64,000 bases of DNA, from NCBI GenBank assembly GCA_035581425.1, contig DATJVP010000081.1, positions 6-64,005 on the forward strand, read 5' to 3'. Shown one piece after another: positions 36,147 to 39,120 of the stretch. Below the pieces are notes generated by a model. The model saw nothing but the letters and a program-made list of their open reading frames with translations. It did no database searches and had not been told where the DNA came from. Source of the stretch: Stellaceae bacterium (GTDB lineage Bacteria; Pseudomonadota; Alphaproteobacteria; ATCC43930; CGMCC-115725). The position numbers and the translations under genes were made by a program. Numbering within the stretch: position 1 is the stretch's first letter; every line of letters begins with the position of its first letter.

Positions 36147-36674
36147 TCAGCCGCCGCAGATTTCAGCGCGGAGCTGCTCGAGCTCCCGGAGATGCTCACG
36201 ATCGTGCGTGGCGATGATGGCGACGAGCTCCTCGATGGTCATGGGGCCGACGCCTTCGAGGATGCCTGCGCGGCGGCGCTCCGCAGGGCCGAGGGCGGCA
36301 AGCCGCGTCACGAGCTCGCGCCGCACGGTCGCAAACGCGACACGTGCCGCGCGCGCGTCCTGCGAGAGGTAGCGGCGCTCCGCGGCGAGCTGGTCTCCCG
36401 CGATGTCCGCAAGCTCCGGCATCGCCTCCGTTAGGATGCGCTCGACCCGCGTGCGATAGCCCTCGAGGTCGATGTTGTGGAGATGGAGCACGTGCTCGAC
36501 GAGCGCGAAGCCTCCCGCCGCCGGACGCCGCCGCCACTCCGATTCCGGAATCGTCTCGGCGATCGCGTCGAGCCGCGCCGGCATTTCCGCCAATTCGGCA
36601 ACCGCGCGCAGATAGCTCCTTGAAGGCTCGTCCGCGGCGTTCATCGCCGCAAGCATCGCGATGGTCGTGCACAT
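36147..36674 (-). CDS. DinB-family (DinB_2-like) protein
   Basis: FALVEHVLHLHNIDLEGY ... IIATHDREHLREL: the His-containing four-helix-bundle pattern of the DinB superfamily. Start chosen at the internal ATG 36674. Confidence 0.65.
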   Translation of the reverse strand: MCTTIAMLAAMNAADEPSRSYLRAVAELAEMPARLDAIAETIPESEWRRRPAAGGFALVEHVLHLHNIDLEGYRTRVERILTEAMPELADIAGDQLAAERRYLSQDARAARVAFATVRRELVTRLAALGPAERRRAGILEGVGPMTIEELVAIIATHDREHLRELEQLRAEICGG

Positions 36675-36743
36675 GGCGTTCCCCAATTCGTCGGAGCCGC
36701 CGGCTCTAGCATATCTCCGGCGGCCTCGCAAAGCGGGGAAGGC

Positions 36744-37256
36744 TCAGGCGCCTTGCTCGGGAGCGCGGTAGATCTGGGGCGGCGGCTCGCCGTGCTTTTC
36801 CGGGAGCTTCGGCTGCGGCGCCGGATGGAAGACCGGGTCGCGCCAATCCCAGGAACGCTCGTAGGGGAGATGCATCACCACGCCGCCGCCGTGGTTGCGC
36901 GAGTTCTCCTCGACCGCCTTCTGGAGGTCGCTCGCGAGCTTCTCGTCCCAGGGCAGCACGTAGTACCGCGGCTCGCGCACCCCGGGGATCTTGAGCCAGA
37001 GATAGATCCCCGAGCCCTCGACGATGTAGGAGCCAAGCACCGGCAATTCGCCATCGGGATGGCGCAGCACCTCGAGCCGGCTCGATTTCGGGCGGCCCAG
37101 CATATCGGAATAACCGAAGAAAAGACCCGCAAGCAGCAGCGCGAAGAATCCGCTCACGATCGCGCGGCGGGTGCGGGTTCCCATGGGGAGGCCCACGAAG
37201 GCGAAAATTCCGAGCGCCAGCGCCAACGTGAGGAAAGCGATGAGGAAGGTCGTCAT
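36744..37256 (-). CDS. hypothetical 2-TM membrane protein with soluble domain and Pro-rich C-terminal tail (third gene of the MotA/ExbB-like operon)
   Basis: 170 aa. Two N-terminal hydrophobic helices, a tail ending PAPQPKLPEKHGEPPPQIYRAPEQGA, and an ATGA overlap with the upstream gene. No family recognised. Confidence 0.6.
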   Translation of the reverse strand: MTTFLIAFLTLALALGIFAFVGLPMGTRTRRAIVSGFFALLLAGLFFGYSDMLGRPKSSRLEVLRHPDGELPVLGSYIVEGSGIYLWLKIPGVREPRYYVLPWDEKLASDLQKAVEENSRNHGGGVVMHLPYERSWDWRDPVFHPAPQPKLPEKHGEPPPQIYRAPEQGA

Positions 37257-37858
37257 TTCTTCTTCGTCTCCTCCTCGCCCATGAAGGCGGCGCGGAGCGG
37301 TTTGTGGATGCGATTGAGGCTGCCCTCGACCATCGCGCCCTTCTTGTCGAGCTTGAAGCGGAAGATCGTGCTCTCCTGCCCGACGTAGCTCAGCTCCATC
37401 TTCGATTGCAGCAGCCGACGGCTCATGCCGTCGGCGCCGGTCACTGTCACCGTCGCCGTCACCTCGATCGGAAAGCGATTGTCCATGGAGCGATAGAGAT
37501 GCGCATTGACGACGTACTCGCCCTGCCAGAAGCCGCGGGCGTAGGCGACCTCATAGTTCATGGGGATGGGCTCGGCGGAATGGCCGAGATCGTCGCGCAC
37601 GAGGTTGAAGATGACGCCGCTCTTGTTGGAATAGCCCACGGGCACGTCGCCCGGGGCCTGCACCCAGAGATCGACGTCGGCGTCGATCTTGTCGTCCCAG
37701 TGGATCTCGACGGTGATGTTGCCGGGCGGCTGCTTACCGGCGGTATCCTCCTGCGCCTCCTTCCGGACATGTGCGAGCGCCACCGCGCCGATCACGAGAT
37801 AGGCGAAGACCAGCAGGAAGAGCATGTCCCGGAAGGAGACATTCATCCCCCGCCACAT
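37253..37858 (-). CDS. hypothetical single-pass protein with an ExbD/TolR-like Asp-containing TM anchor and a non-canonical periplasmic domain
   Basis: 201 aa. N-terminus MWRGMNVSFRDMLFLLVFAYLVIGAV resembles the ExbD/TolR N(I/V)xPxxDV(M/L)LVLLxIF segment. GGAGG lies 9 nt upstream of the ATG. The rest resembles no ExbD, TolR or MotB periplasmic domain that I know. Confidence 0.55.
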   Translation of the reverse strand: MWRGMNVSFRDMLFLLVFAYLVIGAVALAHVRKEAQEDTAGKQPPGNITVEIHWDDKIDADVDLWVQAPGDVPVGYSNKSGVIFNLVRDDLGHSAEPIPMNYEVAYARGFWQGEYVVNAHLYRSMDNRFPIEVTATVTVTGADGMSRRLLQSKMELSYVGQESTIFRFKLDKKGAMVEGSLNRIHKPLRAAFMGEEETKKK

Positions 37859-37861
37859 GGC

Positions 37862-38413
37862 CTAGACCTCCTGGCGCGCGAGGAGATGGGCGTTGGTGCC
37901 GAGCCAGAGATATCCGACGCAGGCCAGCAGGTTCGTGTAGAGCGCCGTGCCCGAGCCGACATAGATCGCGGTCACGACCGTCTTGAAACTCTCGAAGCTC
38001 TGCGCCTTGTCGGCGGAGAGATCGCTCACGGTCATGATGAGGCCGAGCACGGTGCCGACCATGCCGAGATAGACGAGCGCATTGCCGGCCCAGCGCACGC
38101 TTTGCCAATCGCCGCGGAGGCAGCAGACGAGGCCCCAGCCGAAGAGCGCGGTGATGAGGTAGCACATGCCGGTGCTGTCGGCCTCGTAGGGCTTGAGGAG
38201 TACGCCCTCGGCCCAGGCGGCGGCCAGAAGGGCGACACCCACGAGGTTCAGCACCGCGAAGCGCGCGAAGAAGGCCCTTTCCCCCGCGGGAGCGAACGCC
38301 GCGCTGAGGCGCTCCTGCTGCTGGCGGGCGTCGAAGGGGCTCGCAACGGGTGTCGGCTCCACCTCGGCTTGGGGAGTCCGCGACCACGGAAGTCTCGCGA
38401 GGGTGGCACGCAT
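37862..38413 (-). CDS. short MotA/TolQ/ExbB-like proton-channel family protein (putative)
   Basis: 183 aa, 4 predicted TM helices. The last two carry YLGMVGTVLGLI and GTALYTNLLACVGYL about 30 aa apart, resembling the GLLGTVxGM ... ALxxTAxGL signature. AGGAGG lies 7 nt upstream of the ATG. Confidence 0.5.
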   Translation of the reverse strand: MRATLARLPWSRTPQAEVEPTPVASPFDARQQQERLSAAFAPAGERAFFARFAVLNLVGVALLAAAWAEGVLLKPYEADSTGMCYLITALFGWGLVCCLRGDWQSVRWAGNALVYLGMVGTVLGLIMTVSDLSADKAQSFESFKTVVTAIYVGSGTALYTNLLACVGYLWLGTNAHLLARQEV

Positions 38414-38537: not shown

Positions 38538-38987
38538 CTATTTGGCCGCGTCCTCGCAATGACCGAAGTAGGAAGCGACCTCCGTGGGCGCCGGAAGGGT
38601 CACGCTGACGCGCCGCGAGGGCAGGCCCAGGCTCACCACAAACTCGAGCGACCCCACGCGCTGGTCGTGCGGCGGCTCTCCGCGCACCAAGGCGTGGAGC
38701 CGCCGCTCGTCGAGGTCGCCGATCGGGGCGGATCGCGCGCTAATCGTCGTGAAGCGCTCGGTGCCGCGGTAGCAGGTCTCGCCGAGGCAGAACTCCGCGA
38801 TGCCGCGGGCAAAGTCGAGATCGAACTCCTGGAAATGATCCTGGGTATCTCGCTCGCAGCTCGTATCCGTGCACCGCACGGTGTTCTCAAAGGTGCAGCG
38901 GAGCGGGGGCGGGGTGGCCGCAGCGCAGAGCTGCGCTGCGGCGATACTCAGAAACAGGGAGATGATAATGCAAAGGTGCGTGCGCAT
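38538..38987 (-). CDS. secreted Cys-rich hypothetical protein
   Basis: Internal ATG 38987: MRTHLCIIISLFLSIAAAQLCAAATPPP signal peptide. The mature part has 6 Cys (RCTFENTVRCTDTSCERD ... FCLGETCY ... HCED). No family recognised. Confidence 0.5.
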   Translation of the reverse strand: MRTHLCIIISLFLSIAAAQLCAAATPPPLRCTFENTVRCTDTSCERDTQDHFQEFDLDFARGIAEFCLGETCYRGTERFTTISARSAPIGDLDERRLHALVRGEPPHDQRVGSLEFVVSLGLPSRRVSVTLPAPTEVASYFGHCEDAAK

Positions 38988-39120
38988 CGAAATTCTCCGG
39001 CTCGACTCTGAACGACCCTGGGTTGAAGCACCAAAGCCCACCAAGGCCAAGCCCAAAAGACCTTGCCGCCCTGACGCCCCCACGGTTCATAATCGAGCCC
39101 CGGAAGCATCGGAGGACCCC

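Follow-up and report, generated by a model that had tools for sequence, protein, structure and literature searches.

Ion-driven motors of the MotA/ExbB type are known to power flagella, Ton/Tol transport and the maintenance of the envelope, as well as gliding, type IX secretion and the Zorya defence. Whenever the conserved membrane core was found paired with a different periplasmic or cytoplasmic module, a further use of the proton gradient came to light. The ion-binding aspartate of these systems is D32 in MotB, D25 in ExbD and D23 in TolR. In GldM and PorM, the central bitopic subunit of a 5:2-type motor carries periplasmic beta-sandwiches and transmits work rather than binding the cell wall. 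Here we analysed a three-gene locus (A, B and C) in a stretch of 64,000 nucleotides (the window) from a Stellaceae bacterium (contig DATJVP010000081.1). The order of the genes is that of ExbB-ExbD-TonB and TolQ-TolR-TolA, that is, a MotA/ExbB-family protein followed by a bitopic protein with a transmembrane (TM) Asp and a membrane protein with a periplasmic part. The locus differs from these systems in B, whose stator-type anchor carries a periplasmic domain related to DUF2135. The features are as follows (positions are those of the window).

37862–38413, reverse strand: gene A, a minimal membrane protein of 183 residues, assigned to the MotA/ExbB/TolQ family by the PF01618 profile and hydropathy.
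37253–37858, reverse strand: gene B, a bitopic protein of 201 residues in the MotB/ExbD position, with a predicted DUF2135-related periplasmic beta-sandwich.
37766–37834, reverse strand: TM anchor of B (residues 9–31), with Asp11 (codon 37826–37828) at its cytoplasmic end.
37301–37723, reverse strand: predicted periplasmic all-beta sandwich of B (residues 46–186), related to DUF2135/YfaP according to hhalign, a Pfam tally and an AlphaFold2 (AF2) model.
37256–37297, reverse strand: C-terminal helix and Lys/Glu-rich tail of B (residues 188–201; AF2 helix 188–200).
36744–37256, reverse strand: gene C, a protein of 170 residues with two TM helices by hydropathy, adjoining B in 81 of 83 loci.

The three genes form a tightly coupled operon. 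The start of A is preceded by an AGGAGG Shine-Dalgarno sequence, 3 nt separate the stop codon of A from the ATG of B, and the start codon of C overlaps the stop codon of B (ATGA, a 4-nt overlap). Scanning for promoters and terminators was uninformative. Linkage was assessed at 83 loci containing B, drawn from metagenome contigs and GTDB genomes; C was found alongside B in 81 of them and A in 77, some of the contigs ending near B. Clustering of all neighbouring open reading frames (ORFs) yielded no conserved neighbour besides A, B and C, and thus gives no functional lead. The chromosomal hosts are Alphaproteobacteria (Stellaceae, Azospirillum, Skermanella, Geminicoccaceae, Xanthobacteraceae and Kiloniellaceae). 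In the window the trio sits among the housekeeping genes gyrB, PBP1A and msrB, syntenic with a Stellaceae metagenome-assembled genome (L005). The identity to L005 is 85% for A, 90% for B and 93% for C, as compared to 77–92% for the syntenic flanking housekeeping genes, and selection on the trio looks, at this level, like that on core genes. An origin of the window copy from a prophage or a defence island was considered and rejected, because its housekeeping neighbours are syntenic with those of the related genome.

By profile comparison, A is a genuine member of the MotA/ExbB/TolQ family, in a minimal form with almost no cytoplasmic domain. PF01618 (MotA_ExbB) was matched by 18 out of 18 A homologues (best E-value 1e-11), and the search of the PDB with the A profile gave MotA (8gqy, E-value 2.7e-5) first, followed by 8vvn (a 696-residue protein with a MotA/TolQ/ExbB domain), PomA, ZorA and TolQ. 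Four TM helices, as in MotA, were located by hydropathy at about residues 47–72, 81–99, 112–130 and 147–172. The cytoplasmic loop between TM2 and TM3 has only about 9 residues and the C-terminus 11. The window protein contains LGMVGTVLGL and ALYTNLL; the family motifs LGxxGTVxG and ALYTT are kept in the homologues, with GT...G and AL.TT of TM3 and TM4 conserved. Two forms of A were found. The short form (a core of ∼140 residues with the 9-residue TM2–TM3 loop) is present in the window, other Stellaceae, Xanthobacteraceae and phage 16-3, and the long form, with an extra cytoplasmic loop of ∼65 residues, in Azospirillum, Geminicoccaceae and marine phage contigs. Although MotA, PomA and ZorA are among the best PDB profile matches, A has neither the cytoplasmic torque interface of MotA and ZorA nor the long ZorA tail, and it is far smaller than its Ton/Tol counterparts. 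Weak matches to ZorA were also obtained in NCBIfam and PADLOC (E-values of 0.016–0.06). Membership of the Zorya systems was rejected: A is tail-less and matches ZorA only weakly, B and C gave no match in PADLOC or NCBIfam, and, unlike in Zorya and flagellar loci, no ZorC/D-type effectors or flagellar genes lie near the trio.

B is a real and widespread gene. The ORF (37253–37858, reverse strand) and its translation, down to the MGEEETKKK at its end, are exactly those given in the original prediction. A sequence search returned 2268 homologues at E≤1e-3; the best 120 of these share 68–90% identity, are 193–205 residues long, are all named 'hypothetical protein' and contain no Pfam domain. In an exhaustive search of representatives of clusters at 50% identity, 1622 relatives were found at E≤1e-3 and 291 at E≤1e-30. 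Nearly all listed matches have a length of 170–230 residues, so the family has essentially one architecture. One protein of 447 residues (P0268) was considered as a possible fusion and rejected, as it looks like a frameshift artefact. The Lys/Glu-rich tail, which had been pointed out as a feature of the protein, is present in the window B but is variable and not conserved among the relatives.

The sole hydrophobic segment of B comprises residues 13–31, and codon 11 (GAC) encodes Asp. All of 22 relatives share the same sequence from M5 to F18 (MNVSFRDMLFLLVF). In a diverse set of 88 relatives at least 90% have D11, as do most of the phage copies. As far as can be read from the alignments, this is the conservation pattern of the ion-binding Asp in MotB, ExbD and TolR. 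With its single N-terminal TM and the conserved Asp near the cytoplasmic end, B resembles ExbD and TolR; the likeness to the MotB and ZorB anchors is weak (FRDMLF in B versus YADLMT). The B family profile matched the ZorB TM segment (YADLMT) only weakly and non-significantly (E-value of 1.2), and MotB_plug was weakly matched by one of the 88 members (E-value of 0.0087); the helix in the model of B extends to residue 39. Direct sequence support for tying B to one specific family of B-type subunits is weak. The proposal that the anchor is of the stator type gained strength from the adjacent A (PF01618 in 18/18 homologues, MotA 8gqy at 2.7e-5), which adjoins B in nearly all loci and whose conserved TM motifs would place B in the 5:2 motor class. 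Since the anchor is the most conserved part of B and its Asp is nearly universal, the anchor is expected to be functional and not a passive tether. A subgroup with Asn in place of the TM Asp (P0225, P0184 and L085:3074-3856) has an N-terminal acidic cluster (DDDD) instead, and A-like and C-like genes still adjoin it.

The periplasmic part of B is related to DUF2135 over the whole domain, by remote homology between profiles. The window B alone gave no match in Pfam (even at E≤10), NCBIfam, PADLOC, PHROGs or the PDB sequences, and pairwise BLASTP with E. coli YfaP, a DUF2135 protein, was not significant (E-value of 0.15); the relationship is therefore a remote one, visible with profiles only. 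A narrow profile of 22 B sequences against the single YfaP sequence likewise yielded an hhalign probability of 1.6%. The relation emerged once both sides were represented by diverse profiles. The alignment of the B domain against a cleaned YfaP/DUF2135 alignment of 21 sequences gave an hhalign probability of 95.8%, an E-value of 7.2e-9 and a score of 54.2 over 115 aligned columns (positions 4–118 of the 123-residue domain). The maximal score of 30 column-shuffled controls was 22.6, and the reversed control scored 16.5. In reciprocal searches with hidden Markov models (HMMs), all 21 DUF2135 sequences and all 88 B members were matched. When the 88 B relatives were scanned singly, DUF2135 (PF09906) was the most frequent Pfam family, with 8 weak matches (best E-value of 1.3e-4); the window B and the B-family proteins fall below the curated Pfam threshold for PF09906. 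The motifs that align between the two families are W-D..D-x-D-L-x-V, P-x-G, Y-x-N, an acidic L-D-x-D/RDDLG loop, E and G-x-Y-x-V...Y. The original prediction had recognised a beta-sandwich of the DUF2135 type from the layout of such motifs, which it ascribed to a module putatively placed at the end of VIT-vWA proteins, and both the domain and the layout are borne out by the Pfam tally, the hhalign comparison with its clean controls and the all-beta model described below. YfaP itself shares these motifs (WD..D.DL.V, P.G, Y.N, LD.D/RDDLG, E, G.Y.V...Y) and the homologous domain over its whole length, but it begins with a hydrophobic, signal-like N-terminus (read by eye) instead of a stator-type anchor, and it is encoded in the yfaS operon.

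The fold was predicted with AF2. A first model, based on 22 close sequences, had a mean predicted local distance difference test score (pLDDT) of 69 and a disordered conserved loop, and the Foldseek search with it was uninformative. The model from the 88-sequence alignment (pLDDT of 93.3) has a TM helix at residues 2–39, beta strands from 48 to 170 in a sandwich that extends to about residue 186, and a C-terminal helix at 188–200. In this model the domain is all-beta, unlike the alpha/beta fold of ExbD/TolR or the OmpA-like fold of MotB. In agreement with the claim that it is not an ExbD, TolR or MotB domain, PF02472 (ExbD/TolR) and OmpA are absent from the Pfam families listed for the 88 B members, and no ExbD or TolR chain in the PDB was matched by the B profile. 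B thus differs from ExbD and TolR in having a DUF2135-type sandwich instead of their periplasmic fold, and from MotB, PomB and ZorB in having no OmpA-like peptidoglycan-binding domain (Pfam and PDB profile searches) and no clear plug. Of the two comparisons that had been proposed for the domain, profile–profile alignment thus revealed the DUF2135 relation, whereas Foldseek with the good model found no significant match in the PDB and no DUF2135 structure turned up. The most probable PDB match, a Ca-bound beta-sandwich (2lge, probability of 0.98), was non-significant.

Foldseek against a viral structure library matched only uncharacterised phage proteins; the best structural matches in BFVD are large ones, such as a 713-residue protein of Cellulophaga phage phi4:1. 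A distant B member (P0179) weakly matches positions 425–549 of the 673 positions of phrog_1735 (E-value of 0.0028), a PHROG of unknown function. Large phage proteins may thus contain DUF2135-like sandwiches as well. A further weak resemblance (E-value of 0.49) was seen between the B motif W-D..D-L-D-L..P-x-G..Y-S and a C-terminal segment of the Tk-SP subtilisin of Thermococcus (PDB 3afg, residues 433–477). We take that segment for a beta-jelly-roll domain that binds Ca, which hints at a grouping of DUF2135 and B with the PPC-like appendage domains of proteases.

The conserved motifs of the B domain lie in loops (W54-D-D, D61-x-D63-L-W-V, P69-G-D, G75-Y-S-N-K, N85-L-x-R-D-D-L-G92, N101-x-E103 and G113-E-Y-x-V-N) and are retained into the phage copies. 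Most of the invariant residues are acidic or polar and sit in loops (D61, D63, D89 and E103, plus D90, D96, N101 and N118), and their invariance from Stellaceae to phages suggests a metal or ligand site; by analogy, the acid-rich loop face probably binds Ca2+ or another ligand. Such a defined ligand would also fit a classical stator, in which the sandwich is a PPC/CBM-like binder of a carbohydrate or envelope polymer that fixes B, while A rotates and drags C along; the sandwich would then be the anchor and not the output. The domain is indeed placed like the peptidoglycan-binding domains of MotB and ZorB, it may share its family with Ca-dependent jelly-roll and sandwich appendages (the weak echo of 3afg, E-value of 0.49), and collagen-binding and C2-like sandwiches are among the weak Foldseek matches. 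We nevertheless consider this arrangement decidedly unlikely: the ∼15 residues between TM and sandwich seem too short to reach peptidoglycan, judged from general knowledge of the Gram-negative envelope, no peptidoglycan- or carbohydrate-binding family is among the Pfam families listed for the 88 B members, and the structural matches are all non-significant.

C has two N-terminal TM helices (residues 5–23 and 32–50) separated by a basic loop (RTRR). They are followed by a periplasmic part of ∼120 residues that ends in a Pro-rich motif, F-[HY]-x-x-P-Q-P-x-L-P-x-K; the conserved motifs are LPWD, PFE and FYxLPQPxLPxK. Relatives of C were found neither in Pfam (the window C and 18 homologues) nor in the PDB. 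Unlike TonB and TolA, C has a pair of TM helices and lacks a TonB_C or TolA domain. Gene C and the phage copies described below go beyond what the original prediction had seen.

Taken together, we favour with moderate confidence the reading of A, B and C as the subunits of an ion-driven motor in the inner membrane, which would be of the MotA/ExbB '5:2' kind, probably run on protons and have a periplasmic output. A would be the ring and channel subunit and B the central subunit, with the transmembrane Asp11 binding the ion. B would hold its DUF2135-related sandwich ∼15 residues above the membrane, in place of a peptidoglycan-binding or ExbD-type domain. Likely routes for the delivery of work would be this sandwich and the co-translated C, which holds the position of TonB/TolA in the operon. 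As the window A has essentially no cytoplasmic domain, work would have to go to the periplasmic or membrane side, and the absence from the short A of the ∼65-residue loop of longer homologues would rule out a cytoplasmic output. The likeness to Ton/Tol thus comprises tight gene coupling, the family TM motifs of A and the expected periplasmic output. A beta-sandwich on the B-type subunit also recalls GldL-GldM and PorL-PorM, by analogy only; B has one membrane-near sandwich instead of a long shaft, the TM charge is provided by an Asp of B and not by an Arg of the GldM-like subunit, and no GldL or GldM family is among the Pfam matches listed for the A and B homologues. The module is self-contained, and alphaproteobacterial chromosomes share it with their phages, both virulent and temperate; what it acts on is therefore most likely something general to the cell envelope and not a pathway specific to one lineage.

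A number of observations weigh against such a motor. The assembly, stoichiometry and ion flow of A-B-C are predictions from sequence, and the window A by itself matches PF01618 with an E-value of 0.0012, which misses the Pfam threshold. The TM Asp is replaced by Asn in the B subgroup mentioned above. None of the 18 C homologues gave a TonB or TolA Pfam match, and TM1 of C has, by inspection, no His, so that the His-containing TM motif of TonB/TolA is missing. With its short linker, B alone is probably unable to extend as far as the wall or the outer membrane, and the metal-binding idea derives from residue types and weak structural analogies. Finally, the phage neighbours of the trio are heterogeneous and point to no single process.

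To our knowledge, no phage-encoded MotA/ExbB-type module has been described. The trio was found in phages (L089, L090, L094–L107 and L086–L088), some of its members being undetected in certain contigs. By tblastn, B is present in 12 GenBank phage records: Rhizobium phage 16-3 (p040; two records), Sinorhizobium phages NV1.1.1 and AP-16-3, six RHph_* rhizobiophages and RL2RES (two records). The HMMs of A, B and C match p038, p040 and p042 of phage 16-3 (L089, NC_011103 22651–24512), with the small ORFs p039 and p041 interleaved, and the corresponding genes of the other phages. B was also detected in 11 IMG/VR contigs with GC contents of 0.35–0.70, adjacent to C in 11/11 and to A in 8/11, and the trio occurs in T4-like marine viral contigs (GC of 0.35) and in soil phage contigs. 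Neighbouring genes for gp32, UvsX/RecA, a T4 late-transcription coactivator and phage endonuclease I indicate that the contigs are genuine phages, some of them virulent. The distant member P0179 lies on its contig between tail genes and a GH108 endolysin; a scan of viral contigs seeded with this protein found nothing.

Of 15 phage loci, 4 have a gene for a trypsin-like, probably periplasmic peptidase no further than 3.5 kb from the trio. A single small ORF separates it from the downstream A in phage 16-3, and in RHph_X2_25 it directly precedes A. Three of the genes are:

L089:5229–6128, trypsin-like peptidase gene near the trio (p036 of phage 16-3).
L107:3598–4245, trypsin-like peptidase gene near the trio.
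L106:7552–8244, trypsin-like peptidase gene near the trio.

These genes bear on the view that B is a membrane-tethered periplasmic DUF2135 protein, for instance one associated with or regulating a protease, which merely shares an operon with a MotA-like protein and whose TM Asp has no role in ion coupling. In E. coli, the gene for YfaP, a soluble or exported protein, belongs to the yfaS operon; yfaS is presumably an alpha-2-macroglobulin (protease-trap) gene, the E. coli record giving no product name, and a protease connection is therefore conceivable. Chromosomal copies, however, have no conserved protease neighbour, A and B are adjacent and translationally coupled in almost every locus, phages included, and a passive tether would not be expected to be the most conserved part of B with a nearly universal Asp. 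This explanation seems to us very unlikely.

Cell-wall hydrolases (Hydrolase_2 or Phage_lysozyme) are found within 3.5 kb of the trio in 3 of the 15 phage loci, and the remaining phage neighbours are DNA-metabolism genes. The hydrolases can be accommodated if A and B form a gated ion leak rather than a motor, that is, a channel without MotB-type plug or wall anchor whose opening is triggered by a periplasmic signal, sensed by the B sandwich or by C. Depolarisation of the membrane through this leak could serve the timing of lysis or superinfection exclusion in phages, and protection of the abortive-infection type in chromosomes. Carriage by temperate and virulent phages would suit this, as would the location of the 16-3 trio in an accessory region, between immX and attP-int. 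In L087 the trio is positioned between a 72-residue ORF and a GH108 endolysin, and in L103 it follows ORFs that resemble, by eye, a GH19-type lysin, small TM proteins and a lipoprotein. The best weak NCBIfam and PADLOC matches of A are to ZorA, and a minimal A has no cytoplasmic interface for pushing. On the other hand, lysis genes accompany the trio in a minority of the phage loci, others having it among DNA-metabolism genes, and L103 already possesses candidate holin- and spanin-like ORFs (read from the sequence by eye). The chromosomal copies, among gyrB, PBP1A and msrB in synteny with L005, are conserved like their housekeeping neighbours and unlike typical defence loci, and B and C match no PADLOC model. 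A gated leak is thus, in our judgement, unlikely. The trio was also considered as a phage holin/spanin set, which is unsupported, as it is found beside lysis genes in few loci only.

Within the preferred reading of an ion-driven motor, a more specific role can be envisaged: the trio would be a minimal 5:2 motor, hitherto unrecognised, that is exchanged between phages and their alphaproteobacterial hosts. Powered by the proton gradient, its DUF2135-type, Ca-binding-like head would act together with C during infection to remodel or protect the envelope on its periplasmic side, by excluding superinfecting phages, controlling lysis or blocking the entry of DNA. We regard this role as somewhat unlikely. 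If true, it would be the first phage-encoded stator-type motor and the first functional context for DUF2135.

A variety of 'generic ion transporters' that bear DUF appendages feature in a recent survey of the relatives of MotAB; its section on them names only other appendages, DUF3450 and DUF2341. Among the papers searched, none was found on the module and none mentions DUF2135, and in the paper on phage AP-16-3 the trio genes go unmentioned. No family was found for B or C in Pfam, NCBIfam, PHROG or PADLOC. The architecture of a DUF2135-type head on a stator-type anchor, which had been put forward as previously unseen, likewise turned up in no annotation or publication, and its suggested significance as a new output for an ion-driven motor would follow if the trio works as such. 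With at least 1,600 clusters at 50% identity, the B family is a large one, and it is wholly unannotated; the wall-binding or ExbD domain is swapped for a domain of unknown function, and the third subunit C has no detectable relatives. The unusually small A offers a convenient minimal model of the motor core. The system is experimentally attractive because phages of both the virulent and the temperate kind carry the trio, one of them being the classical Sinorhizobium phage 16-3. Since the trio is present in this phage (S. meliloti) and in Azospirillum, genetics is immediately possible. Such genetics could assign the first function to DUF2135 and show whether phages deploy ion-driven motors of their own.

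Two further ORFs flank the trio in the window. In the one just upstream of A (38538–39083, reverse strand), an internal Met precedes a stretch that resembles a signal peptide (MRTHLCIIISLFLSIAAAQLCAAA), and there are several Cys residues. Searches of Pfam, NCBIfam and PADLOC gave no match for this ORF, and none of the 83 related loci has it, not even the syntenic L005. Downstream of C lies an ORF (36147–36731) that by eye we take to be DinB-like; it is single in the window and present as two tandem copies in L005 (L005:7173–8301).

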